Source of the DNA: Gemmatimonadota bacterium
GTDB taxonomy: Bacteria > Gemmatimonadota > Gemmatimonadetes > Longimicrobiales > Gaopeijiaceae
DNA length: 64,000 nucleotides
Direction: 5' to 3'
NCBI GenBank assembly: GCA_029879725.1
Contig: JAOUPR010000001.1
Location: forward strand, 3,324 to 67,323
Positions 15,822 through 27,492 of this stretch are shown here, piece by piece. Under the pieces are notes generated by a model, which saw nothing but the letters and a program-made list of their open reading frames with translations, was not told where the DNA came from and ran no database searches. The position numbers and the translations under genes were made by a program. How positions within the stretch are numbered: position 1 is the stretch's first letter; the number at the start of each line of letters is the position of its first letter.

Positions 15822-17477
15822 TTATCGGATCGATGGGTCGAAAACAGTAGGGGGATCTCCCCTGTCGACGCCGGATCCCTTCCCCGACGCGATGTCGTCC
15901 GCCCGGTGGGCCGCCCGGGGAGCGAAGGACAGCGCGAGTTCGCGGAAGAATTCGGCCTTCCCCCGGTCGCCGCGGTCGCGCGCTGCCCGGCTCAGGACGC
16001 GGAGGACGTCGGCGTCGAAGGGGAGTTCCTCCCCGTTGCCGTACCTCTCCCAGGCATGACTCCGGGCCACCGCCAGGGTGGCCTCGGCGAACACGTTGTC
16101 CGGGGCGATGGCGATGGCCCTGTCGAGCGATCGGATCGCCGGTCCCAGGTCTCCCCGGCGGAGGAGTTCCTCACCCAGTTTGTGGTGGGCCTTGGTGGAC
16201 CGGGGAGCCCAGCGAGCGGCCCAGCGGAAGAGGGAGACGTCGTCGGACCAGGCGGACGAGTACCGGGCGGTCTGGAGCGCGAGGCCCGCCCCCACCACCA
16301 GTGCCGTCGCCGCCGCCACGCCCCGTCGCCGCGCCCACAGACCATGGCCCGCGAGCCCCGCGGTGAGAGAGAGTGCCACGCTCGGCAGATACAGGAGTCG
16401 TTCGCCGAAAATGGTACCCACCGCGACCACCAGGTTGGACGCGGGAAAGAGGGTGACCGCGTACCAACCCGCGAGAAGGAGAGGAAGGCTCACCCGCCTC
16501 CCGCTCCGCGCCACCACCCAGGCCACGGATCCCAGGATCAGGAGAGCGCCGACGAACCGGACGTCGGCCATGGAGCCGACCACGGGGAAGGCGTCGAAGG
16601 AATAGTCCGGCGACAGCCGCCACGGAACCGCCAACAGGCCGATCCCGTGGCCCACCACCGCCACGGCCGTCCCCACCCGCGCCCACGGGGACGCCGCCAC
16701 CAGGGGGTTGTCCAGGTAGGAGGTGCCCGGGATACCGAAACCGCCCGTCACGTGGAAGCGGGCTACGAGGAGGAGGAGGAGGACCGCAGCGTAGGCGGCG
16801 TACATGGCCCGTCCAGGCCGCCTCCCACCCCCCACCGACCCGTGGAGGTACAGGTCCTGGAGCGCCACCAGGGCGGGAGCCACCACGCCGACCTCCTTGG
16901 ACAGGGCCGCTCCTGCGAAGCACAGGGGCGCCAAGACCCACCCACGGCCCATGCGATCCAGCGCCCGGGCGTGGGCCAGCACCATCCCCAGGAGGAACAC
17001 GGCCGCCAGGAGATCCCTCCTGCCGAAGACGGCCGCCACCACCTCCACGTGCACCGGGTGCACGGCGAAGATCATGGCCCCCACCCCCGCCGCCACCACG
17101 GGGAGCCGCCACAGCCGTCCGACCTGGAACACCAGGATGGAGACGAAGGCATGAAGCCCCACGTTCGCGAGGTGGTAGCTCCAGGGCTCCAACCCGGAGA
17201 CGGCGTGGTTGACCAGGTAGCTCGAGATCGTGACGGGACGATAGAGGAACGTCTCCATCCCGCTCCCCTCCCACGCGGTGCTCGTGAAGATCGACGGGAG
17301 GGACCGCCACGACCGGATGAAGACGTTCCGCACGACTTCCATCTGATCGTCGTATACCCACCCGAAGGTGACGGTGCGGAGATACGTCAGCGCCGCCGTC
17401 GCTCCGACGGCTACCCGCCAGAGTCGGGGATCCTCCGGACGGGAGGGCGGGCGGTCATGGGGATCCGGACCGGGCAT
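15822..17477 (-). CDS. Polytopic membrane protein of the GT39/PMT-like (DUF1736) type with C-terminal TPR repeats
   Basis: ORF 15822..17774 trimmed to Met at 17477 (MPGPDPHDRPPSRPEDPRLWRVAVGATAALTYL); ~10 predicted TM helices followed by soluble TPR-like C-terminus (HHKLGEELLRRGDLGPAIRSLDRAIAIAPDN). Confidence 0.6.
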   Translation of the reverse strand: MPGPDPHDRPPSRPEDPRLWRVAVGATAALTYLRTVTFGWVYDDQMEVVRNVFIRSWRSLPSIFTSTAWEGSGMETFLYRPVTISSYLVNHAVSGLEPWSYHLANVGLHAFVSILVFQVGRLWRLPVVAAGVGAMIFAVHPVHVEVVAAVFGRRDLLAAVFLLGMVLAHARALDRMGRGWVLAPLCFAGAALSKEVGVVAPALVALQDLYLHGSVGGGRRPGRAMYAAYAAVLLLLLVARFHVTGGFGIPGTSYLDNPLVAASPWARVGTAVAVVGHGIGLLAVPWRLSPDYSFDAFPVVGSMADVRFVGALLILGSVAWVVARSGRRVSLPLLLAGWYAVTLFPASNLVVAVGTIFGERLLYLPSVALSLTAGLAGHGLWARRRGVAAATALVVGAGLALQTARYSSAWSDDVSLFRWAARWAPRSTKAHHKLGEELLRRGDLGPAIRSLDRAIAIAPDNVFAEATLAVARSHAWERYGNGEELPFDADVLRVLSRAARDRGDRGKAEFFRELALSFAPRAAHRADDIASGKGSGVDRGDPPTVFDPSIR

Positions 17478-17508
17478 GTCCCGCGTGCGCCGGGGATGCG
17501 CCCCGGGC

Positions 17509-18015
17509 TCAGTTCTCCGCGGTGGTGAAGGGATGCGGACCCCGGGGCTCCTCGCAACCCGGCCACGATTCGTGCTCCATGGCGATTCTCCACCTGCCGT
17601 CTTCTCCGCGGAGAACGAGCCGGGTCCAGAAGAGTGCGCCCGCCTCGCTGGACGCTCCCCTCTGGGTAACCACGGCCGCGTCGGGTCCGGCGACCTGGAC
17701 GCCGACGATCTCCTGCTCGAACACGACTTCGGGATGCGCCGCGTAGAAGGGAGCGACCGTGCCGGCGAAGGCACTCCCTCCCAGGATGAACTCGGTGCAT
17801 CCGAGGTAGGTGAAGTCCTCGGTCCTACCGTAGAACGCCAGGACTTCCTCCGCGTCGTGCGCGTTCATCGCCCGGGTCAGGTCCTGCATCACGCCGGTGA
17901 CCTCCGCGACGATGGCGTCCCGACCTTCCCGGGACGGGTATGCCCCCGGCGAGTCGCATCCGGCGACGGTCAATGCAGCCAGAGTGAGGGCGAAGATGGA
18001 GCGCGAGGCAGACAT
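17509..18015 (-). CDS. Lipoprotein with SnoaL-like/DUF4440 (NTF2-fold) domain
   Basis: ORF 17509..18531 trimmed to MSASRSIFALTLAALTVAGCDSP (lipobox VAGC); 168 aa; NTF2-like core. Confidence 0.55.
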   Translation of the reverse strand: MSASRSIFALTLAALTVAGCDSPGAYPSREGRDAIVAEVTGVMQDLTRAMNAHDAEEVLAFYGRTEDFTYLGCTEFILGGSAFAGTVAPFYAAHPEVVFEQEIVGVQVAGPDAAVVTQRGASSEAGALFWTRLVLRGEDGRWRIAMEHESWPGCEEPRGPHPFTTAEN

Positions 18016-18140
18016 ACGGTTCGGTCCGGTGTCGAAGGAGCGGATCCGGCACCGCGAGCACCCGCCCGAACCCGTTCCGGACAGGTGCCCCGGGCCGAGA
18101 GGCCACGATCCCGGAGGATCGTGACCCATGGACCCCCGGT

Positions 18141-19232
18141 TCAGTGCGTCCTCATGACCTCGAGGGTATTGGTGAGCACGGCCATGGCGTAGGCCGGATT
18201 GTGGATCCCGTGACTCAGATCCTCCTCGAACATCTGCCAGTTGGCGAACCCGGCCACCACGTCCGCCGGCCACGTGCCGGGAACGGCGTAGTGATCGACA
18301 CCCTGGATCCCGATGCGTTGGAGCTCCGTGGAGATGTCCGCGAGGAGTGTCGTGACCAACGTCTGCACGGTGTTGTGGTCGAAGGTCGTCAGGGGAACCG
18401 TGGTATGGCATCCGGTGCCGTTGCACCCCGCCACGTTCTCCTCCACCGCACCGTGATAGAGGTACGACATCTTCCACGTATGTCCGCCGGCCTGGCTGCC
18501 GAAAGCCTGGGCCATGTGACAGGTGCCGCACACCTCTGGGTTGCTGTCCGGGTCACCATGGACGGTAGGGCCACCGGCGATGACCCGCGATCCCGTGAAC
18601 TCGAACGCGCCCACTCCACCCACGACCTGGGCCTGCGGGCCGTGGTGGAAACCGTACCGGGACGAGGTGAGCGTAACGTCGGCACCCCCCAACTCGGGTA
18701 CGGGGCTGAGCACCCTGCCCTGATGGCACTGAGCGCACAGATTCCCCACGTCCGCCCCGTAGTCCACCGTCCCATGACCGGCGTTCCACAACTCCACGGG
18801 AGCCGTGGTGGTCAGGGCGAAGTCGGCGTCGGTGTAGGTCGTGTGGATCTGATGGCACGTCCGGCAATTGATGGGTGCGGGGTCAACGACGTTGGCGGCC
18901 GTGACCATCGCGCCCGTGGCGATCCGCTCGATGAAGCCCTGGTGGGTGTGACAGGGCGCGCAACTCGTGGTCGACCGCTCGAAATTCCCACCGAGCCTGT
19001 GCTTCGACTCGCCATACTGCACCTGCTTGGCGTACAGCGTCACGTCTTCGGTGTGGCACTGGGTGCAGTTCTCGTTGGCATCCTGTCCGGCCGGACCGGT
19101 CGGTCCGGCGGGGCCCTGGAGTCCCTGGGTGCCTTGTGGCCCGGCGGGCCCCGTCGGCCCCTCCGGGCCTTCGCATCCGGCACCGATGACGAGGGCCCCG
19201 ATGAACAGGAAGGCCCAACTGCGTCGTAACAT
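18141..19232 (-). CDS. Hexa-heme c-type cytochrome lipoprotein with N-terminal collagen-like (Gly-X-Y)10 tether
   Basis: 363 aa; signal peptide ending IGAGC; immediately followed by EGPEGPTGPAGPQGTQGLQGPAGPTGPAGQD (10 consecutive G-X-Y); heme motifs CTQCH, CAPCH, CRTCH, CAQCH, CGTCH plus a CX4CH (CNGTGCH); AGGGAGGG RBS 3 nt before the ATG. Confidence 0.8.
   Translation of the reverse strand: MLRRSWAFLFIGALVIGAGCEGPEGPTGPAGPQGTQGLQGPAGPTGPAGQDANENCTQCHTEDVTLYAKQVQYGESKHRLGGNFERSTTSCAPCHTHQGFIERIATGAMVTAANVVDPAPINCRTCHQIHTTYTDADFALTTTAPVELWNAGHGTVDYGADVGNLCAQCHQGRVLSPVPELGGADVTLTSSRYGFHHGPQAQVVGGVGAFEFTGSRVIAGGPTVHGDPDSNPEVCGTCHMAQAFGSQAGGHTWKMSYLYHGAVEENVAGCNGTGCHTTVPLTTFDHNTVQTLVTTLLADISTELQRIGIQGVDHYAVPGTWPADVVAGFANWQMFEEDLSHGIHNPAYAMAVLTNTLEVMRTH
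19080..19169 (-). repeat. Coding repeat: 10 uninterrupted Gly-X-Y triplets (collagen-like) inside the hexa-heme cytochrome gene
   Basis: Residues 22-51 of the 18141..19232 product; at DNA level an imperfect GGn-CCn 9-nt periodicity. Confidence 0.7.
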
Positions 19233-19490
19233 GTTTCCCTCCCTTGAAGAGTAGATGCTACTCGATCAGTGAGGAGGGTCTCGGCCCGGAATCCGGTAAT
19301 GGCAGGGAGGACAGGGGGAGTATACCGGCCGTCATGGCCGCGGCATGCACCTAATGGTACATTAATGGACGGGAGCGCGCTACCCCGATCTACGTAGTGT
19401 TACGGACCCTTCCCGAGGCACGGGATCCGTGGGATTACCCATCGGCGCACCTACTCCCATTCCCACCAGACCCTCCAGGTCGAAAAGCCC

Positions 19491-20168
19491 ATGAAATCGG
19501 CGATCTTGGCGTGCTCGATGGTCCTCGGGCTCCTCGTCGTACCGGTCCGCGCGTCCGCCCAGGACAGCTCCTCGATCTCCCTTTCGCCCCGCATCGCGCT
19601 CTTCGCCCCGGACTCGTACTTCTACGAGGACTTCGTCAACTTCGCGGGGGATGGACCCGTGGAGTGGTCCCACGGCGCCCTGGGCCGGATGGGAGCGTTC
19701 GGCGTCTCCGGTGAATGGCGCGTGGCACACGGGATCCGGATCCGGGGAGAGATCCTCCGTTCCTTCGACGGGTGGTTGCGGGTAGCCCACTCGGTGGTGA
19801 CCCCCAGGGTGCTGTTCGAGCCACCCCGGGTGGTGACCACGTGGCTGGACGCGCCCGCCACCCTGACGCTCACGAGCCTCCAGGTGGTGCTCCCCACGGA
19901 GCTACGGTGGGAATGGCTGCGGCCGTACGTCTCCGGCGGCGTGGGTGGAAAGCGCTACGCGTTCGGAGACCCCCTCACGCCCAACGAGGCGGGCGCGACC
20001 CTCCCTTCGCCTGGGTTCACGTGGGGCGGAGACCTGGGAGCAGGCGTCGAATTGACGCTCCTGGGGATCACGGCGGACCTGCAGGTCCGCGACGCCATCA
20101 CGCGCTACTGGGGAAAGACCCAGCACGACCTGGTGTACACGGGCGGCCTCTGGTTCAACGTCCGGTGA
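19491..20168 (+). CDS. Predicted outer-membrane beta-barrel protein (small, ~8-10 strands)
   Basis: 225-aa ORF; signal peptide MKSAILACSMVLGLLVVPVRASAQ; alternating hydrophobic pattern; C-terminus GGLWFNVR. Confidence 0.55.
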   Translation: MKSAILACSMVLGLLVVPVRASAQDSSSISLSPRIALFAPDSYFYEDFVNFAGDGPVEWSHGALGRMGAFGVSGEWRVAHGIRIRGEILRSFDGWLRVAHSVVTPRVLFEPPRVVTTWLDAPATLTLTSLQVVLPTELRWEWLRPYVSGGVGGKRYAFGDPLTPNEAGATLPSPGFTWGGDLGAGVELTLLGITADLQVRDAITRYWGKTQHDLVYTGGLWFNVR

Positions 20169-20180
20169 GGTGAGGGGGAT

Positions 20181-21194
20181 CTACCACACCCGGGTCACGC
20201 CGACCTGGAGTTGAAAGTCCAGGGACGGGCCGCGAGGCGGCACGTCCTCCTGGAGTGATGCCTCCCATCGCCACCCGTTACCCGCCCGACCCACCACGCC
20301 CACCACCAGGTCGGTCACGGCATGGTCCATGTCCGGATCGCCGAGCGGGCGGGTGAGCGGTGGGGAAGCCACGAACTGGATCACCCCACTCGCCCCCGGG
20401 CCGAGCGGCCGCTCCAGGGCCACGGCCAGAAGCCAACCCCACCCCCGGAGCACATCGCGCAACTCGGGAAGCGTCCGCACGGAGAACCCCTCCACCACAC
20501 CGTGCCCATGCCACCCTCTCCACTCCCTACGCGCCATGGCCGCGACGGCCACGTCGGCGCGCTCCGTCCCGAACGGATCGTCCACCATCGGGATCCGTGC
20601 GCTGACCCGGAATGACAAGACCCTCTGGCGGGAGACGTCCCGGAACACCCGCCACTTCCCGAACAGGCGCACCTCCGTGAGCGCCCACTCCCTCCTCGGC
20701 ACGGCCAACCGGAGCCTCCCCCGTGCATCGACGAACGTGACCTGGTGCTCACCATACGGGTATCGCTCGCGGAAGTGGTTCCCGAGTCCGAACGCGTTGT
20801 GGAAGCCCACGATGACCGGATCGAGGATCCCTCCGCCGGTGTTCTCCCACGCGGCCCGCACCCCGATCTCCACGCCCTTCCCCAGGCCGGCCCGGACGGT
20901 GGCGGACGCGATCAGCCGCTCCAGGTCCAGGACGACCTGGTGGGTGGCCGAGGAGTCGCGCTCGAAGATGTTGGCGTACGCGAACCAGAGGCTCGCCGAG
21001 ACGCCTGCGCCGGGGAGTACCTCCGCCGACTCCGTGACCCCCGTGTAACCGAGCCGCTGGAGGGGAGCACCCTCCTCGAAGGTGAGCGGACCCAGGGGGG
21101 TTCCCTGCCCCGCGGCGGGAGATTCCATGGGGGCGAACCCGACCGCCAGGGACGCCGCCCAGGCGACCGGCGGCGGCACCGCCGCGCGGGGCAC
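20181..21194 (-). CDS. Predicted outer-membrane beta-barrel (porin-like) protein, last gene of the cytochrome operon
   Basis: ORF 20181..21989 trimmed to a GTG 3 nt after the upstream cytochrome stop (VPRAAVPPPVAWAASLAVGFAP signal-like N-terminus); alternating amphipathic strands, Gly/aromatic-rich, C-terminal QLQVGVTRVW (terminal aromatic residue typical of OMPs). Confidence 0.6.
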   Translation of the reverse strand: MPRAAVPPPVAWAASLAVGFAPMESPAAGQGTPLGPLTFEEGAPLQRLGYTGVTESAEVLPGAGVSASLWFAYANIFERDSSATHQVVLDLERLIASATVRAGLGKGVEIGVRAAWENTGGGILDPVIVGFHNAFGLGNHFRERYPYGEHQVTFVDARGRLRLAVPRREWALTEVRLFGKWRVFRDVSRQRVLSFRVSARIPMVDDPFGTERADVAVAAMARREWRGWHGHGVVEGFSVRTLPELRDVLRGWGWLLAVALERPLGPGASGVIQFVASPPLTRPLGDPDMDHAVTDLVVGVVGRAGNGWRWEASLQEDVPPRGPSLDFQLQVGVTRVW

Positions 21195-21196
21195 GC

Positions 21197-22624
21197 CTAC
21201 CGTCCCACCACCGAACGGTGGAACGCGTCGTCCATCTCCTCCGACATGAACCGGGCCTCCAGCCTGTAGTGGCAATAGGAGCAGAAGCCGGGGCGGGGCG
21301 GGAGCCCGAAGTCCGGACGTGGCGGCACCGGGACCCCCGCCGCGGAGTAGGCGGCCGCCACTTCTTCGATACTCTGGTCGAGCATCTGGTGGGTGAGGAT
21401 GAGATTGTGGTAGGCGCCGCCCCTGTCCAGCAACCCCAACCGACGGCGGACATCCACCACGACCCCTTCCAGGGCCGAAGCCGGAAGGCGGACGTCCGCC
21501 GCCCCCAGGTACGCTTCCACCAGCGAGATCCGCTCGGCGATCCCCTCCTCCCACCACCGCAGCACGGTGTCGTATTCCCGGCCATGGCACCCCGTGCACG
21601 CGGATCCACTGCCCCGGGTCGCCACCCCGCCCCGGCCGGGCCTCTCGGCCGGCACATGGCACGAGCGGCAGGTCAGACCCTGGGTGAACTTGTGCGAGGG
21701 TGCCGAGAGCGGCATCCCATCCACCAGCCCCAGGAAGAGCCTTTGCGGCTCGGCATGCGTGTCGCGGTGGCACGCGATGCACGTCGCCGGATCGCGAAGG
21801 CCATACCCCAGCTCCACGTCGTGGGCGTGGTCGTGGCAGTCGGTGCAGCGAAGGTCCACGGCGGAGCTCATCGCCTGGATCCGGTGGGTGTCCGCCTCGT
21901 GGCACGTGCCGCACGACACCCCGGTGTGATCCGGATGAAGATCCTCGCCCAGCCCTGCCGCCGTGACGGCGCCGGCATTCGCGTGGCACCGGTCACACCG
22001 CTCCGCCGAAACCTCCCGGCTGGGACGCGACACGTCGAAATGGCACCGTACACATCCGCCCGACACCCAGGGGAGCCCCTGGTGCGGCACCGCGACTCCC
22101 TGACTCGTGGCCCCCTCGAACTCCAGATCCTGATGGCACACGCGGCACTCTTCCCCTCGAACTCCCGCCAGCTCCGACTCGTGGCACAACCCGCACGTCT
22201 CGGCTCCGGCCGTCAGGAGCCCGCCACCCTCCTCGTGGCGATGGCACCCCGCACACTCCACCGCGACCTGAGCCGAGTCACCGTGGGTCACGTGGTGGAA
22301 CTCCACCGTGACCATGGTCAGGCTCGAGCGCGGGGAGCGCCGGTGGCAGTCCCCGGAGACGCACGTCTCGCCCGGGACGGAGCCCCGAGCCCGGTCGGCG
22401 GTCTCGCCCCGATGGCACTCCGAGCAAGAGAGCTCCGCGTGCCCCGCGCCTGCTTCCATCGCGATCCCCGGACCCGACCGGACCTCCGCATCCGCCGGAT
22501 CGGCCTCCCGCGACACCGTGGGGTCGCAGGCCAGAGCCATCAGGGTCGCCGCGGACAGAACGGCGAGCCCACACCTTCGTGAATCGGCCCGGAAGGGCCG
22601 GATCAGCAGAACGTCACTGCCCAT
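21197..22624 (-). CDS. Multi-heme c-type cytochrome (12 CXXCH + 1 CX4CH)
   Basis: ORF 21197..23185 trimmed to Met at 22624 (MGSDVLLIRPFRADSRRCGLAVLSAATLMALACD; signal/lipobox-like); motifs CSECH, CVSGDCH, CAGCH, CGLCH, CRVCH, CVRCH, CDRCH, CGTCH, CTDCH, CIACH, CRSCH, CTGCH, CSYCH; start overlaps upstream cytochrome b gene by 22 nt. Confidence 0.8.
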   Translation of the reverse strand: MGSDVLLIRPFRADSRRCGLAVLSAATLMALACDPTVSREADPADAEVRSGPGIAMEAGAGHAELSCSECHRGETADRARGSVPGETCVSGDCHRRSPRSSLTMVTVEFHHVTHGDSAQVAVECAGCHRHEEGGGLLTAGAETCGLCHESELAGVRGEECRVCHQDLEFEGATSQGVAVPHQGLPWVSGGCVRCHFDVSRPSREVSAERCDRCHANAGAVTAAGLGEDLHPDHTGVSCGTCHEADTHRIQAMSSAVDLRCTDCHDHAHDVELGYGLRDPATCIACHRDTHAEPQRLFLGLVDGMPLSAPSHKFTQGLTCRSCHVPAERPGRGGVATRGSGSACTGCHGREYDTVLRWWEEGIAERISLVEAYLGAADVRLPASALEGVVVDVRRRLGLLDRGGAYHNLILTHQMLDQSIEEVAAAYSAAGVPVPPRPDFGLPPRPGFCSYCHYRLEARFMSEEMDDAFHRSVVGR

Positions 22625-23496
22625 AGGATCATTCCGATGAGGGCGATGCCCACGGCGAGAGCGGTGAATCCGAGGATCGCGGCCACCGTGGTGGCCCACC
22701 GTGACGGCGGCGGGGCGGGCGTGTCGGGGACCTCGTCCAGGGAAGGCGTCCGGTGGAGATTCTCCTTCACGCTCTCCATGACCTCCGGGTGCTCCTCCTC
22801 CATGTACTCGAGTGTGGCCCGCCCGGTGAAGATCACGGTGTCCAGCGGGAACTTCTCCGGCCTCAGGTGCACGTTGAAGAAGTGGACCGTGAAGATGAAT
22901 CCCGCTGCCAGCAGAGCCTCGTCGGCGTGGATGACCGTGGCCACGTTGAACGCCCACCCGGGGAGGAAGGCAGCGAAGAACTCGGGAAACCAGAGGACCA
23001 GCCCGGACCCTCCGATGATGGCCACTCCCCAGAACACGGCGAGGTAGTCGAACTTCTCCATGTAGGACCACCTCCGGAACGCCGGCTTCGGTCCGAAGCC
23101 GAGGAACCACCTGATCTGGTTCCAGAAGTCCACCACGTCCCTGGGCTGCGGCACCATGGAGTCGGGGCCCCAGAAGAGGCTCCACCGATCAGGACTGCGC
23201 ACGAACAACACGGCGACGTACCCGACGTGTGCCCCGAAGTAGAGGAAGGTCACGACGGCACCCACCCTGTGGAGGAAGCCGGCGCTTTCCACTCCTCCCA
23301 ACAGGGCCATGAGGGGCCCGGACCAGAAGGCACACGAGAACCTCAAGGGGAGGCCGGTGATCACCAGGAGGAAGAACGACACGATCACGGCCGCGTGGGT
23401 CCACCGGTGGAAGCGGTTGAAGCGCCACACGAAGGGGCCCCTCCCTCGGGCCGCGGCGTCGAGTGACACCGGGTCCCGCACCCTGCTCCCGTTCAT
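22603..23496 (-). CDS. Di-heme cytochrome b membrane subunit (FdnI/HydC/PhsC-like prokaryotic cytochrome b561)
   Basis: ORF 22603..23814 trimmed to MNGSRVRDP at 23496 (GAGGGAGGA RBS); N-terminal RFNRFHRWTHAAVIVSFFLL motif, 4-5 TM helices with conserved His (FLHRVGAV, TVIHADEALLAAGFIFTVHFFNVH); ATGA overlap with upstream cytochrome c stop. Confidence 0.75.
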   Translation of the reverse strand: MNGSRVRDPVSLDAAARGRGPFVWRFNRFHRWTHAAVIVSFFLLVITGLPLRFSCAFWSGPLMALLGGVESAGFLHRVGAVVTFLYFGAHVGYVAVLFVRSPDRWSLFWGPDSMVPQPRDVVDFWNQIRWFLGFGPKPAFRRWSYMEKFDYLAVFWGVAIIGGSGLVLWFPEFFAAFLPGWAFNVATVIHADEALLAAGFIFTVHFFNVHLRPEKFPLDTVIFTGRATLEYMEEEHPEVMESVKENLHRTPSLDEVPDTPAPPPSRWATTVAAILGFTALAVGIALIGMILWAVTFC

Positions 23497-24695
23497 GATC
23501 GATCCTCCCTCGTCCCGGTTCCCGCGCGCATGAGCCGTACTCCGTCGAGGGTGACCCGGAACAGCCAGAGTGCCGTGTGGAGGCCGAACACCGTGAACAC
23601 ACCCACGAGGAGCGCGGTCATGAAACGGTACGACCAGTAGACGTGGGGGTACCGCTCCCGGTCGGCGTGATCGGCATGTGGCTGGAATCCGGCGAAGTTC
23701 ACCGCGGCGCCGGGATGGCACGCGCGGCACGTCTTGAGAAGGTTCTCCTCGGACACGGACGAACGCGGATCTTCGGTGGCGTGGATCGAGTGTGCCGTGT
23801 GGCAGGCCTGGCACGTCGCCGCGCGACCGGACCCCAGCGTCGATGCCTGACCGTGATACGAGTCGGCGAAGCTCTCCCCGTATTCCTCATGGCACCCGGA
23901 GCACGCCGCCACCACGGACCGGCCGAAGACCGCGCCGTCCCCGGATACCGCCGGCATCCCGTGGGCTCCGTGACACGCGGTGCACCCCGGAGGGGCTGCG
24001 GGAGGGTGCCCCAGGTCGAATTCATCCAGTGACGTGCCCCCGTCGGGAGGCCCGGAAGTCTCGTTCACGGCCTCGCGGTGGGCGTCCCGCTCCCACTCCG
24101 CGGCCACCTGGTCATGGCACGTCCCGCACGTGGCGTGCTGGTTCAGAGGATGTACGCCCGCCTCGGGATCCCCGGGGGACCGGGTACCGTGGGCTTCGTG
24201 GCAGGCGGTACACGCCACAGAGTCCGCGTGCGGGTCCGACGCCGGCATGCGCGGCTCGAAGTGGCACGATACGCACGCGCCGTTCATCTCCCGGAGGCCC
24301 GGCGTCTCGCCGAGACCCGCGGAGGAGGCCACATCGTGAACCCCGTGGCACGACGCACACTCCGCCGCGGCGTCCACGGCGTGCACGCCTCCGCTCCACT
24401 CCGTGGCCGGGTCCGGGTGGCACTCGGCGCACGACGCCGTGGCGGCCGTCCCCGGGTGCGGGTAACGGCGATACCCCGAATGGCAGTCGGCACACCCTCG
24501 TTCGTCGTGAGCCGTGCCCCGCTGACCGACGGACGGAACCAGGAGCGCCGAGGCTTCTTCGAGCGTCTCGGTGTGCTGACGAAGGAACTCCAGCTCGGCG
24601 TGACACAGGTCGCACCGTCCCCCGGCCTGCTGAGCGTCCACGGAGGCGGCTCCGGCCAGACCCGCCATGCACACGACCACGTCCACGATTCTCAT
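23493..24695 (-). CDS. Undeca-heme c-type cytochrome with signal peptide and C-terminal transmembrane anchor
   Basis: 400 aa; signal MRIVDVVVCMAGLAGAASVDAQQ; eleven CXXCH (CDLCH, CADCH, CAECH, CASCH, CVSCH, CTACH, CGTCH, CTACH, CSGCH, CQACH, CRACH); C-terminal hydrophobic helix FMTALLVGVFTVFGLHTALWLF; ATG overlaps upstream regulator stop (ATGA). Confidence 0.8.
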   Translation of the reverse strand: MRIVDVVVCMAGLAGAASVDAQQAGGRCDLCHAELEFLRQHTETLEEASALLVPSVGQRGTAHDERGCADCHSGYRRYPHPGTAATASCAECHPDPATEWSGGVHAVDAAAECASCHGVHDVASSAGLGETPGLREMNGACVSCHFEPRMPASDPHADSVACTACHEAHGTRSPGDPEAGVHPLNQHATCGTCHDQVAAEWERDAHREAVNETSGPPDGGTSLDEFDLGHPPAAPPGCTACHGAHGMPAVSGDGAVFGRSVVAACSGCHEEYGESFADSYHGQASTLGSGRAATCQACHTAHSIHATEDPRSSVSEENLLKTCRACHPGAAVNFAGFQPHADHADRERYPHVYWSYRFMTALLVGVFTVFGLHTALWLFRVTLDGVRLMRAGTGTREDRS

Positions 24696-26047
24696 GCATC
24701 CACTCCGAACTTCCGTAAACGGTTCCGGATCTGATGGCGGCTCAGTCCGAGAAGCCGGCCCGCCTCGGAGCGATTTCCTTCGGCCATCTCCAACGCCTCC
24801 CCCAGGAGCCGCCGCTCCAACTGGGCGAGGTCCAGCCCGGCGGGTGTCAGGGCCGGCACGGCACGTCCCGCCGATCCCTCGGCCTTCGCCCTCAGCTCGG
24901 CCGGAAGGGCTCCGGCGTGCACGGTCCGGTCGTCGGTCAGGAGGACGGCGCGCTCCACGACGTTGCAGAGCTCCCTCACGTTCCCCGGCCAGCCGTATCC
25001 CTCGATCAGTTCCATGGCCTCCGCGTCGACCTCCCGGATCTCCTTCCCGAACTCCGCCGCGAAGCGCACCACGAAGGCCCGCACGAGGAGCGGGATGTCC
25101 GATCTTCGATGACGCAGGGGAGGCAACTCGATGGGGAGCACACGGAGCCGGTAGAAGAGGTCCTCCCGGAAACGGCCCGCCTCCACCTCGTCCTCGAGAA
25201 TCCGGTTCGTGGCGGCTATGACGCGCACGTCCACCTTGCGGTCCTCGATGCCGCCCACCCTGCGGAACACGTGATCTTCCAGGAACCGGAGGAGCTTTCC
25301 CTGAACGGCGGGAGACAGCTCCGCGATCTCGTCCAGGAAGAGCGTGCCGCCATCCGCGACCTCCACGAGCCCACGCTTGAGGGTGCGAGCGTCCGTGAAC
25401 GCCCCCTTCTCGTGACCGAACAGCTCGGACTCCATGAGAGACTCGGGAAGGGCCGAGCAGGTGACCGTCACGAAGGGGCGGTGGGCACGCGCGCCGAGCC
25501 GGTGGATGAGGCGGGCCACCACCCCCTTTCCCGTTCCGGTCTCACCCAGGAGGAGAACGGTGGCCGTATCCGCGGCGGCCACGCGCTCCGCCAGGTCGAG
25601 GACCTCCCGCATGGCGGGACCGGACCCGATCACGTCGCCCCGGATCCCGGCCTCCTTCCTCAGGGCGCGGATCTCCCGGCGCATACGGGTACGCTCCAGC
25701 GCGCGGTCCAGCGTGGCCTCCAGTCGATCGAGAGAGAAAGGCTTCTCCAGGTAGTCCTCCGCCCCGTGCTTCAGCGCCTCCACCGCCGACTGCACGGTGG
25801 CGTGCGCCGTGATCATGATGCAGGGGACGTCGTTGGGCGGTCCCAGCTCCTCGAGTATCTCGGTGCCCTCCCCATCCGGAAGCCGGATGTCCAGGAGAGC
25901 CGCGTCGGGTGGAGTCCGGTCGATGATGGCACGGGCTCCGGCCACCGTGGTCGCTTCGGAGACCACGTACCCCCGGCGAGTGAGCCGCTCCCTGACCACG
26001 GTGCGGATGAGGGAGTCGTCGTCGAGAACGAGGACGCGGTTCGCCAT
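24692..26047 (-). CDS. Sigma-54-dependent response regulator (NtrC/Fis family: REC - AAA+ sigma54-activator - HTH)
   Basis: ORF 24692..26053 trimmed to ATG 26047 (GGAGGGG RBS). REC with LVLDDD / LLDIRLPDGEG. Sigma54-interaction domain with Walker A GETGTGKG and GAFTGA-type loop (EKGAFTDA), ESELFGHEKGAF. C-terminal Fis-type HTH RLLGLSRHQIRNRLRKFG. Confidence 0.9.
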   Translation of the reverse strand: MANRVLVLDDDSLIRTVVRERLTRRGYVVSEATTVAGARAIIDRTPPDAALLDIRLPDGEGTEILEELGPPNDVPCIMITAHATVQSAVEALKHGAEDYLEKPFSLDRLEATLDRALERTRMRREIRALRKEAGIRGDVIGSGPAMREVLDLAERVAAADTATVLLLGETGTGKGVVARLIHRLGARAHRPFVTVTCSALPESLMESELFGHEKGAFTDARTLKRGLVEVADGGTLFLDEIAELSPAVQGKLLRFLEDHVFRRVGGIEDRKVDVRVIAATNRILEDEVEAGRFREDLFYRLRVLPIELPPLRHRRSDIPLLVRAFVVRFAAEFGKEIREVDAEAMELIEGYGWPGNVRELCNVVERAVLLTDDRTVHAGALPAELRAKAEGSAGRAVPALTPAGLDLAQLERRLLGEALEMAEGNRSEAGRLLGLSRHQIRNRLRKFGVDA

Positions 26048-26049
26048 GA

Positions 26050-27492
26050 TCACCCCTCCGGCGTGTGGGCGACGGCACGCCCGGGAAGGACCACCCGCAC
26101 GCGCGTCCCCCGCCCCGGACTGCTCTCGATCACCATGGCGCCCGCGTGAGCGGATACGATCCGCGCCACCAGGGGAAGGCCGAGCCCGGTTCCCGTGGGC
26201 TTCGTGGAATAGAAGGGTTTGAGCGCCCGCTCCGTCGCGGCCGGATCGAGGCCCGCCCCGGTGTCCGCGATGGACACCTCGACCCCGCCCCCTTCCGCGG
26301 GCGTCACCCCGATGGTGATCTCCCCGCCACGGGGCATGGCCTCCACGGCGTTGGTGAGCAAGTTGAGGAACGCCTGGCGGAGACGGTGGCGATCACCGGG
26401 TACCTCGGCTTCAGGGAGCATGTACAGGCGATGGATCCCGACCCGCTCCATCCCGGGGAATCCCACCAGCCCCGCCAGAGCATCGTCCAGCGTCTCGGCC
26501 AGATTCACGCTGTCTTCGTTCATGACCAGGGGCTTGGCGAGACCGAACAGGTCCTGCATGGTCTCCTCCAGGCGGCGCAGTTGCAGATGGACCGCGTCGA
26601 GGACTTCGCGCCCCTGTTCGGTGATGTCGTATTCCTGGTCGAGCACCGACACCGCGGTCTGGATGGACGCCAGCGGGCGCTTGAATTCGTGGGCCATCTC
26701 CGCGGCCAGCTCTCCCACCTGGGCGAGTCCTTCCCGGGCCTCCATCTGGCGGCTCTGCTCCCGGGCCTCCGCCGCCATCTCCTCGCCCCGCTCGACGATG
26801 TCCCGCACCGAGTCCTCCAGGTCGGACAGGTCTCCCGGGCGGGAAGCCGGTGCGCCGTGCCCGGGCCCACTGTGGAGGAGAACCTCCACACGGTGGAGCG
26901 GAGCCACGACCTCCCTCTCGAGCATGGTGGCGACGACGCTGCCCATGGCCAGGAGGGACACCGCCACCAACGCCATCCCCAGGTACATCCCCTTCCGTAT
27001 TCCCTCGCGGGCGGGCGCCGCGAACATCACCACTTCGAGCACGGCGGCGGCGGGAAGGGACAAGGGGAAGTATGCGCGGGCCGAGTTCCGGTCATCGGAC
27101 ATGGACACGGTGCCCGAGCGGGGGAGTTCGGCCGCCTCGGGGATCCAGCGTGACCCGGCGGACATCCCCTCTTCCGAGCGGTGAGCGGAGAGGATCACGC
27201 GACCGTCGGGTCCGTAGACGCGGGCCTCCAGAGGAGAGCCGCCGACCTGGAGCCGCGTCAGCGCGTGACGTGCCGGCTCGGGGCGCCCCAGGCGAAGCGC
27301 GGACTCTATGGCGGCCTGGGTGGACACGCCGGCGAGGAGCGCCTGCTCCCGGACCGTCGCCAACGCCTGCTCCTCCCAGTAGCGGAAGGAAAAGAAGGTG
27401 GAGAGACCGAGGGCACCCAGTCCGGCACCCGTCAGGGTCAGGACGACCTTGGTGCGGAGGGGGAGGGACCGTATGACCGCCAACCAGAGCAT
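26050..27492 (-). CDS. Sensor histidine kinase (2 TM, ~150-aa periplasmic sensor, HisKA, HATPase_c), cognate to the downstream NtrC-type regulator
   Basis: 480 aa; TM1 VVLTLTGAGLGALGLSTFF, TM2 GMYLGMALVAVSLLAMGSVVA; H-box AHEFKRPLASIQ; N-box NLLTNAVEA; G-boxes DTGAGL / GTGLGLPL; stop TGA 2 nt before regulator ATG. Confidence 0.85.
   Translation of the reverse strand: MLWLAVIRSLPLRTKVVLTLTGAGLGALGLSTFFSFRYWEEQALATVREQALLAGVSTQAAIESALRLGRPEPARHALTRLQVGGSPLEARVYGPDGRVILSAHRSEEGMSAGSRWIPEAAELPRSGTVSMSDDRNSARAYFPLSLPAAAVLEVVMFAAPAREGIRKGMYLGMALVAVSLLAMGSVVATMLEREVVAPLHRVEVLLHSGPGHGAPASRPGDLSDLEDSVRDIVERGEEMAAEAREQSRQMEAREGLAQVGELAAEMAHEFKRPLASIQTAVSVLDQEYDITEQGREVLDAVHLQLRRLEETMQDLFGLAKPLVMNEDSVNLAETLDDALAGLVGFPGMERVGIHRLYMLPEAEVPGDRHRLRQAFLNLLTNAVEAMPRGGEITIGVTPAEGGGVEVSIADTGAGLDPAATERALKPFYSTKPTGTGLGLPLVARIVSAHAGAMVIESSPGRGTRVRVVLPGRAVAHTPEG

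Follow-up and report, generated by a model that had tools for sequence, protein, structure and literature searches.

The window analysed here is a 64,000-nt stretch of a Gemmatimonadota bacterium contig (GenBank assembly GCA_029879725.1, contig JAOUPR010000001.1, positions 3,324 to 67,323 of the forward strand), and our subject is a minus-strand gene within it that encodes a lipoprotein cytochrome with six haem-binding motifs and a collagen-like segment. An earlier note, made from the sequence of the window, had described the product as a lipoprotein multihaem cytochrome with five CXXCH motifs and one CX4CH motif, a description that we confirm. The translated product has the layout of a predicted lipoprotein precursor, in which a lipobox Cys (Cys20) is followed by one Glu, 30 residues of Gly-X-Y triplets, four further residues and a hexahaem domain of ~310 residues. 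The features of the gene are as follows.

18141..19232, minus strand: gene for the collagen-stalked hexahaem lipoprotein cytochrome, an open reading frame (ORF) of 363 aa
19173..19232, minus strand: predicted signal peptide (aa 1-19) and lipobox Cys20 (codon 19175..19173), from sequence, the lipobox rule and conservation
19080..19169, minus strand: collagen-like stalk of ten Gly-X-Y triplets (aa 22-51), from sequence, shuffles and weak profile matches
18144..19079, minus strand: six-haem domain (aa 52-363), NrfA/OcwA-type fold predicted, C-terminal helices at aa 286-307, 323-338 and 346-362
19053..19067, minus strand: haem site 1, C56TQCH60, present in at least 98% of representatives
18948..18962, minus strand: haem site 2, C91APCH95, from sequence and conservation, with a His rather than a Lys ligand
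18852..18866, minus strand: haem site 3, C123RTCH127, from sequence and conservation
18723..18737, minus strand: haem site 4, C166AQCH170, aligned with the CAQCH of Shewanella NrfA (haem 3 in our numbering)
18516..18530, minus strand: haem site 5, C235GTCH239, from sequence and conservation
18405..18425, minus strand: haem site 6, C270NGTGCH276 (CX4CH), from sequence and conservation

The precursor begins with MLRRSWAFLFIGALVIGAG directly ahead of C20 or, written with its charged start set apart, MLRRSW-AFLFIGALVIGAG-C20. A PROSITE-style lipobox rule accepts it, along with 91 of its 120 best homologues (many of the others are N-terminally truncated fragments) and 121 of 147 representatives of the wider family, and Cys20 is kept in 98% of 129 diverse representatives. 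The gene is called identically on three independent metagenome contigs, and two NCBI entries match the protein residue for residue (MDH5588635.1 and MDH5757953.1, 'MAG: collagen-like protein [Gemmatimonadota bacterium]', MAG being a metagenome-assembled genome). This automatic name hides the cytochrome, and thus surveys of multihaem proteins that go by name could overlook proteins of this kind.

The stalk starts immediately behind Cys20-Glu21 and reads GPE GPT GPA GPQ GTQ GLQ GPA GPT GPA GQD, unbroken, after which four residues (ANEN) lead to the first haem Cys of C56TQCH. The segment had been put down in the earlier note as (Gly-Pro-X)10; the ten uninterrupted triplets stand, whereas Pro fills the X position in only seven of the ten, so that (Gly-X-Y)10 is the accurate formula. 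When the 31-residue linker was shuffled 200,000 times, ten consecutive triplets were never reached. A search of 5.8 billion proteins returned more than 1,300 relatives of the cytochrome, the best 120 of which we examined in detail. Triplets are absent from 19 of these, all of them N-terminally truncated fragments, and the motif Cys-Glu-(GXY)7-14 is present in every one of the 101 full-length close homologues with zero breaks in register. The gap from the stalk to the first haem Cys is exactly four residues in 96 of these 101, Pro occupies X in 68% of triplets, the Y position is taken by Ala, Thr, Gln or Asp, and Gly occurs at X or Y in just 5 of 2,106 positions. It had been proposed that a universal lack of the triplets among homologues would point to an assembly error; they are instead carried by 101/101 close and 123/133 diverse relatives. 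An assembly artefact or a chance low-complexity run is ruled out by the independent contigs, the conservation among homologues and the shuffles.

The conservation of the register extends well beyond close relatives. Searched exhaustively with a profile, 1.84 billion cluster representatives yield 504 clusters of the cytochrome family (50% identity, E <= 1e-30), and the 123 triplet-bearing sequences among the 133 full-length representatives of the family have 2-16 triplets directly behind the lipobox Cys. A genome scan with one genome per species, in which we inspected the best 80 of at least 478 loci, places the gene in Gemmatimonadota, Bacteroidota (Saprospiraceae, Bacteroidales, Lentimicrobiaceae, Chitinophagales and Marinilabiliales), Ignavibacteria, Kapaibacteria and Chlorobiota. 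Outside Gemmatimonadota, the triplets differ in kind (GKD, GVD, GTN and GID versus GPA/GPQ/GPT), yet the Gly register is maintained. The family profile matches collagen peptides and BclA. Pfam Collagen (PF01391) scores 19.7 bits on the 363-aa protein against a cut-off of 27.2; the segment fills half of the 60-position model, and it falls below the threshold because it is short. PF01391 is present in the precomputed annotation of some longer homologues.

At the DNA level, the stalk is weakly repetitive, with Tandem Repeats Finder scores of 32-36 against the usual threshold of 50. All four Gly codons (GGC, GGG, GGA and GGT) are used in it, and in the stalk regions of 49 high-GC (guanine-cytosine) Gemmatimonadota genes (L001, L007-L064), A/T-ending Gly codons make up 54% of the total versus 29% in the globular part (chi-square p = 2e-29). 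This diversification means that the periodicity is held at the protein level with the DNA kept non-repetitive, and selection, either against repetitive DNA or for a balanced use of tRNAs, seems to lie behind the excess of A/T-ending codons. The suggestion that the repeat DNA is a site of length variation therefore survives in part: the number of triplets does vary among lineages (2-16), whereas a slippage-prone DNA repeat is ruled out by the Tandem Repeats Finder scores and the diversified Gly codons.

Several loci contain two or three stalked copies in tandem (L022:6491-10951, L023, L034, L054, L074 and L081), separated in L022 and L023 by a SnoaL-like gene. The heads of these paralogues are 62-79% identical, and their triplet numbers are mostly equal (13/13/13, 11/11, 11/11, 8/8 and 8/8, with 11/8 and 9/8 as exceptions). 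Since hetero- or homotrimers would require matching numbers, this equality would fit heterotrimers; recent duplication could also explain it.

The head accounts for 86% of the protein. Its six haem motifs are kept in 93-100% of the 129 diverse representatives, and so are another six His, namely residues 78, 130, 196, 251 and 344 (98-100%) and 225 (93%). Six additional His fit either six bis-His haems or five together with an open haem and a pocket His, and the count thus leaves the choice between carrier and enzyme undecided. No CXXCK motif is present in the 363-aa protein or the 129 representatives, in which all six motifs end in His. The spacing of haem site 6 varies within the family: where the alignment shows CX4CH in the 363-aa protein, over half of the 101 full-length close homologues have CXXCH. 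We found no dedicated Pfam or NCBIfam model for the head: only the generic Cytochrome_C7 passes its cut-off (26.8 vs. 24.8 bits), while the Pfam MtrC-MtrF domains II/IV reach 24.9 bits against a cut-off of 30, and MtrC-family structures are absent from the fold matches of the head.

Structure prediction and profile comparison both place the head near NrfA and OcwA. A single-chain AlphaFold2 model built with 63 homologues has a mean pLDDT (predicted local distance difference test) of 80 and three long C-terminal helices, and its Foldseek match is OcwA, the Thermincola surface cytochrome (E 5e-4). In this model, the head is of the NrfA/OcwA type, with predicted NrfA-type haem packing in which a haem core is joined to the three long helices. 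A profile match to E. coli NrfA (4wjy) spans residues 124-347 of the query and 134-371 of the chain, and a weak alignment of the family profile with Shewanella NrfA (E 4e-4) pairs CAQCH with CAQCH, H225 with the 'GIHG' His, H251 with the 'DHK' His and 'GIHNP' with 'AAHAP'. The 'GIHG' His is what we take to be the active-site His of NrfA. In the same weak alignment, the 'EYY' that follows CAQCH in NrfA, presumably the place of the active-site Tyr, is replaced by Q171-x-R173. By sequence order, haem site 2 is the candidate counterpart of the catalytic haem of NrfA (haem 1).

The collagen-like segment fills the entire gap from the lipid-bearing Cys to the first haem and must therefore act as a tether, as the earlier note had it. 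We favour, with about even confidence, a trimeric collagen stalk with three hexahaem heads that would work in a respiratory chain of the envelope, either as an electron carrier on a tether or as a terminal reductase. Triple-helix packing demands a strict Gly-X-Y register, we know of no other need for one, and the segment is therefore read as a collagen triple helix. In this mechanism, the Gly-X-Y segments of three chains would wind into a rod of ~8.6 nm (30 residues at 0.286 nm each; about 2-14 nm over the range of the family), anchored by three lipids at one end and bearing three heads, with 18 haems in all, at the other. Because haem 1 begins four residues past the stalk, its three copies would cluster near the threefold axis, where electrons could pass between them. 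With no redox centre in the stalk, the head would get its electrons from diffusing or protruding partners. Small cytochromes c and modules that oxidise quinol (either cytochrome b plus multihaem or NrfCD-type) are the candidate donors; their genes adjoin family members in Bacteroidota and are more loosely associated with the cytochrome in this window. The head would then hand electrons on, either as a tethered carrier or as a terminal reductase of broad specificity.

A number of observations weigh against a trimeric, stalked carrier. A short acidic or Ser/Thr linker replaces the triplets in 10 of the 133 representatives and another 27 have only 2-5 triplets, so that the stalk is dispensable or very short in some lineages. 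The AlphaFold2 model has pLDDT values below 50 for residues 1-60. An isolated 30-residue collagen helix that is free of hydroxyproline would be marginally stable and would need a trimeric head, and no hydroxyproline system is in evidence. The solved relatives of the fold offer no trimer: NrfA is a dimer, and OcwA is a mixture of monomer and dimer in solution (PMC6703420). A pure carrier role is further put in question by the alignment of H225 with the 'GIHG' His and by the enzymes among the relatives of the head, and the genes that neighbour the cytochrome differ between phyla.

Alternatively, the head could be an enzyme, namely an NrfA-superfamily reductase or oxidase that acts on a soluble substrate (nitrite, hydroxylamine, NO or a sulfur oxyanion, for example) and is supplied by small soluble c-type cytochromes, with the stalk merely keeping it on the membrane. 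This is compatible with either a trimeric or a monomeric stalk, and we consider it possible, if somewhat doubtful. Not only H225 but also CAQCH and the C-terminal 'H-N-P' align with NrfA, and if H225 is not a ligand, five distal His are left for six haems. OcwA, the best structural match, has two haems with open coordination and reduces nitrite and hydroxylamine (PMC6703420), and Crp/Fnr-type regulators adjoin 9 of 32 non-Gemmatimonadota loci. Set against these points, the CXXCK motif is absent, Q171-x-R173 stands at the place of 'EYY', and no enzyme family of NCBIfam or Pfam is reached. The six conserved extra His are equally expected of an all-bis-His carrier, and a paralogue with nine haem motifs, encoded in a porin-cytochrome-type operon, points to electron transfer.

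That paralogue is a ~520-aa lipoprotein that shares its C-terminal G-x-HNP motif with the stalked cytochrome and has no triplets (L009:6948-8501, minus strand; L011:5293-6861, minus strand). In both loci, its gene closes a porin-cytochrome-like operon that adjoins the gene of the stalked cytochrome and encodes two further multihaem proteins, one with 11 haem motifs and a fused C-terminal membrane domain and one, periplasmic, with 14 haem motifs, together with a 486-aa protein that has no Pfam match and is taken to be a putative barrel. L018 and L024 repeat this cluster pattern, and the gene set of L004 resembles it.

A second alternative leaves the head as it is and concerns the stalk, which could be a monomeric spacer, extended in a polyproline-II-like manner or flexible, that forms an unusually regular tether with no triple helix or obligate trimer. 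The lineages with few or no triplets, the low confidence of AlphaFold2 in the segment and the oligomeric states of the solved relatives all agree with it, as does a second cytochrome family, described below, in which ~60% of members have a plain C-K-K-D-E-type or similarly short linker at the same place. A flexible or polyproline-II spacer, however, needs no Gly at every third position, whereas the register is unbroken in 101 homologues with Gly nearly absent from X and Y. The periodicity is also held across phyla despite unrelated X/Y composition, and the diversified codons indicate that it is maintained at the protein level. We regard a monomeric spacer as unlikely on this evidence and return to the triple-helical stalk as the preferred reading.

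The second family was met at one of the fetched loci, where L063:1770-2738 (plus strand) encodes a 322-aa class-I dihaem cytochrome c lipoprotein of unrelated fold that begins, after its signal peptide, with C-T-K-E-(GXY)10. No further collagen-like ORF is present in the window, and in the fetched loci, we found only antisense frames of the same region besides this dihaem protein. Among the 120 best members of the dihaem family (P0388-P0507, from Bacteroidota, Chlorobiota and Kapabacteria), 48 have C-x-K-E-(GXY)4-15 after the lipobox and most others have a plain linker. With triplets in both the hexahaem and the dihaem families, the collagen-like tether thus looks like a module of at least two cytochrome families of the FCB (Fibrobacteres-Chlorobi-Bacteroidetes) group.

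The residues directly behind the lipobox Cys also differ between lineages. In the Gemmatimonadota form of the hexahaem protein, Glu at +2 is invariant, and a Bacteroidota-type form, C-x-K-(D/E)-G, is found in 25 of 121 representatives. The experimentally defined surface-export signal of Bacteroidota is C-X-K-(D/E)2-X, for which two acidic residues were needed in Capnocytophaga (PMC5080379). The C-x-K-(D/E)-G form overlaps this signal but has one acidic residue where Capnocytophaga needed two; a full match, as a C-x-K-(D/E)2 linker, occurs in 18 of the 83 dihaem-family members that pass the lipobox rule. Given the overlap, the Bacteroidota proteins may stand on the cell surface as 'redox lollipops' that exchange electrons with the outside. 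In its widest form, our reading would make triple-helical collagen stalks a general modular tether for lipoprotein cytochromes of the FCB group, in which the number of triplets (2-16, or ~2-14 nm) sets the distance between head and membrane, perhaps with surface 'redox lollipops' in Bacteroidota and O-glycosylation of the stalk by a TMTC-like protein in Gemmatimonadota. We put this forward tentatively, as a speculation that may well not hold in full.

The neighbourhood of the cytochrome gene in the window is made up of the following genes.

19491..20168, plus strand: small outer-membrane beta-barrel of 225 aa, predicted OmpW/OprG/Ail-like, from the AlphaFold2 model, fold matches and recurrence
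17509..18015, minus strand: SnoaL_3/DUF4440 (NTF2-like) lipoprotein of 168 aa, downstream, the most frequent conserved neighbour in Gemmatimonadota
15822..17477, minus strand: TMTC-like (DUF1736) membrane protein of 551 aa with tetratricopeptide (TPR) repeats, downstream on the same strand
20181-27492, minus strand: multihaem operon from sensor kinase through DUF3187, with gene ends that overlap by a few bases

Read in the direction of the cytochrome gene, the order is sensor kinase, sigma-54-type response regulator, 11-haem-motif protein with a C-terminal membrane helix, cytochrome b, 13-haem-motif lipoprotein, DUF3187, the 225-aa gene on the opposite strand, the cytochrome, the SnoaL_3 lipoprotein and the TMTC-like/TPR protein. 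The 11-haem-motif protein, cytochrome b and the 13-haem-motif protein lie 1-5 kb from the cytochrome. We assessed the recurrence of these neighbours in two ways. By tblastn over 82 related loci, a SnoaL-like gene recurs in 35, the 225-aa gene in 26, the TMTC-like gene in 16, DUF3187 in 2 and the 13-haem-motif protein in 1. By clustering of crude ORF calls within four genes of the cytochrome, the 45 Gemmatimonadota loci contain SnoaL_3 (25), the 225-aa barrel (20, usually directly upstream and divergent), DUF1207 (15), TMTC (14) and a GerE-type regulator (13).

The same clustering of the 32 loci from other phyla yields a monohaem cytochrome c (13), a DUF5777 barrel (11), a small haem lipoprotein (9), a Crp/Fnr regulator (9), multihaem/cytochrome b modules (9), NrfC/NrfD-like pairs (5), ccsB (5) and ccsA (4). 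In locus L072, the cytochrome gene is the first of a co-directional operon and is followed by genes for a small haem lipoprotein, DUF5777, a monohaem cytochrome c and a multihaem protein; the operon further holds cytochrome b561, a 4Fe-4S protein, NrfD, an unassigned membrane protein and a NapC-like protein. What the loci have in common is the context of an envelope respiratory chain, and no single partner is conserved across phyla.

Two side observations concern these neighbours. In four Bacteroidota loci (L072:15-9547, plus strand; L060; L082; L083), the small haem lipoprotein gene stands directly before the DUF5777 beta-barrel gene in the operon of the stalked cytochrome, a pairing that, by analogy, recalls the fused cytochrome-porins of the Cyc2 type; a literature search on DUF5777 found nothing. 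In Gemmatimonadota, Thr occupies 14% of stalk Y positions, and a TMTC-like gene is found in the 14 of 45 loci given above. O-glycosylation occurs in BclA and in worm cuticle collagen, and by analogy the Thr-rich stalk might be O-glycosylated by the co-encoded TMTC-like protein, which would stabilise the helix without hydroxyproline.

The 225-aa protein belongs to a family of 127 proteins, and all named sources of these are Gemmatimonadota or Longimicrobiales. The earlier note was right to call it a beta-barrel: its AlphaFold2 model is all-beta (pLDDT 89) and matches OmpW, OprG, Ail, OmpX, NspA and the transmembrane domain of OmpA. Its gene, which had been described as convergent with the cytochrome gene, is divergent from it, on the plus strand across a 258-bp spacer. 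The note had further cast the barrel as the partner porin of the cytochrome and the adjacent multihaem operon as its conduit, which would make the two proteins a porin-cytochrome pair that works across the outer membrane. The barrel gene is indeed near the cytochrome gene in 20-26 of about 45 Gemmatimonadota loci, a DUF5777 barrel lies within four genes in 11/32 loci of other phyla, and multihaem and cytochrome b genes are close by in the window. The modelled barrel is nevertheless of the 8-strand class (OmpW/OprG/Ail/OmpX/OmpA-TM, where TM is the transmembrane domain). MtrB-type sheaths need ~26 strands, and a barrel of the predicted size could dock or accompany a cytochrome and would be too small to enclose one. 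It has no detectable homology to DUF5777 or DUF1207 (hhalign probabilities <=1.4%), a cofactor-free collagen stalk cannot conduct electrons through a membrane, and the proposed conduit does not travel with the cytochrome, as its 13-haem-motif lipoprotein recurs in 1/82 loci and DUF3187 in 2/82. We therefore consider such a pair improbable. That the protein is primarily a collagen-like adhesin with a secondary haem domain, as the NCBI name and weak NCBIfam matches to Lcl, SclA and SclB might suggest, is very hard to credit, since those matches reach only 18-21 bits against cut-offs of 325-500 and cover the triplets only, 86% of the protein is a conserved six-haem domain, and the gene context is respiratory.

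Two features lie in the leader of the cytochrome gene.

19236..19243, minus strand: Shine-Dalgarno sequence AGGGAGGG, four bases ahead of the ATG
19249..19263, minus strand: palindrome GAGTAG-cat-CTACTC, present and not conserved

The gene thus has its own ribosome-binding site, AGGGAGGG, as had been noted, and GGAG-type sites are found in most related leaders. The palindrome had also been pointed out and is present; it is neither conserved nor more frequent than background, with a hairpin of at least 6 bp in only 6 of 31 related leaders versus 15% of random 70-nt windows. As a regulatory element, it is ruled out on these two counts, and it probably has no function. Rfam gave no match in 17400..20300, we found neither a sigma-70-like promoter nor an intrinsic terminator, and no sigma-54 consensus lies near the cytochrome gene; the number of such consensus sites in the window is below chance despite the sigma-54-type response regulator upstream of the neighbouring operon.

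The design of stalk plus hexahaem head, common to hundreds of uncultured Gemmatimonadota, Bacteroidota and relatives, is apparently undescribed. Our literature search for collagen-like segments paired with multihaem cytochromes, extracellular electron transfer, Gemmatimonadota or Ignavibacteria found nothing relevant, and a paper on multihaem evolution (PMC9250108) makes no mention of a hexahaem, collagen or lipoprotein form. Only in a few Proteobacteria is it understood in detail how electrons cross the 20-30 nm of the envelope and pass beyond it, by way of soluble shuttles, porin-sheathed cytochromes and cytochrome filaments. A rigid, cofactor-free rod that holds haem heads at a genetically set distance would, if true, be a different structural solution, and it may show how such bacteria hold redox proteins at a set distance from the membrane. 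Bacterial collagen, so far known mainly from adhesins and spore surfaces, would in that case gain a new use. The phyla in which stalked cytochromes occur are abundant in soils, sediments and wastewater, and are mostly uncultured.

When compared to known systems, the head is closest to OcwA of Thermincola potens (PDB 6i5b, PMC6703420), a cell-envelope electron-transfer protein that acts as a cell-surface terminal reductase and likewise combines a globular haem domain of NrfA-type haem arrangement with a C-terminal three-helix bundle. OcwA differs in having nine haems, two of them with open distal positions, versus six motifs here, at 15-19% identity. Its location is the cell wall of a Gram-positive organism, and it lacks both a lipid anchor and a collagen-like segment, whereas ours is a lipobox protein from a diderm Gemmatimonadota MAG. 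With NrfA and the octahaem nitrite reductases (PDB 6v0a, 1qdb, 3ubr, 8rv0 and 2ot4), the head shares the aligned CAQCH, 'GIHG' His and 'DHK' His as well as C-terminal helices with an H-x-P motif. Unlike NrfA, it has no Lys-ligated CXXCK haem, has Q-x-R for 'EYY' and one extra N-terminal haem, is predicted to be lipid-anchored via a collagen-like stalk, and reaches no NrfA family model. MtrC and OmcA of Shewanella and OmcB of Geobacter are also lipid-anchored multihaem c-type cytochromes of the envelope, and the likeness extends to the weak MtrC/MtrF Pfam match and to the nine-haem-motif paralogue in its porin-cytochrome-like operon. In these, however, the fold is a staggered cross rather than NrfA-like and the partner is a large porin, and the stalk is found only here; the MtrAB/Pcc conduits likewise differ, in that the adjacent barrel has ~20-26 strands versus the 8-stranded type predicted for the 225-aa neighbour.

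For the stalk, the nearest parallels are BclA of the Bacillus exosporium and Scl1/Scl2 of Streptococcus, which share the uninterrupted, hydroxyproline-free Gly-X-Y repeat, the globular head, the 'lollipop' layout and a number of triplets that varies between lineages. Composition is a further likeness, with triplets rich in GPT in BclA and in GKD in Scl2. The rods of both are much longer, at tens of triplets, and their anchoring (LPXTG or exosporium) and heads (adhesin or tumour necrosis factor-like) contrast with the N-terminal lipid and the cytochrome here. In BclA and Scl, a stable hydroxyproline-free triple helix next to globular heads is proven, whereas here it is predicted by analogy. Finally, Braun's lipoprotein Lpp of E. 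coli is a homotrimeric, rod-shaped lipoprotein of ~8 nm that sets a distance within the envelope; as an alpha-helical coiled coil with no cofactor domain and no homology to the stalked cytochrome, it is a functional analogy only, that of a trimeric lipoprotein rod that serves as a spacer.

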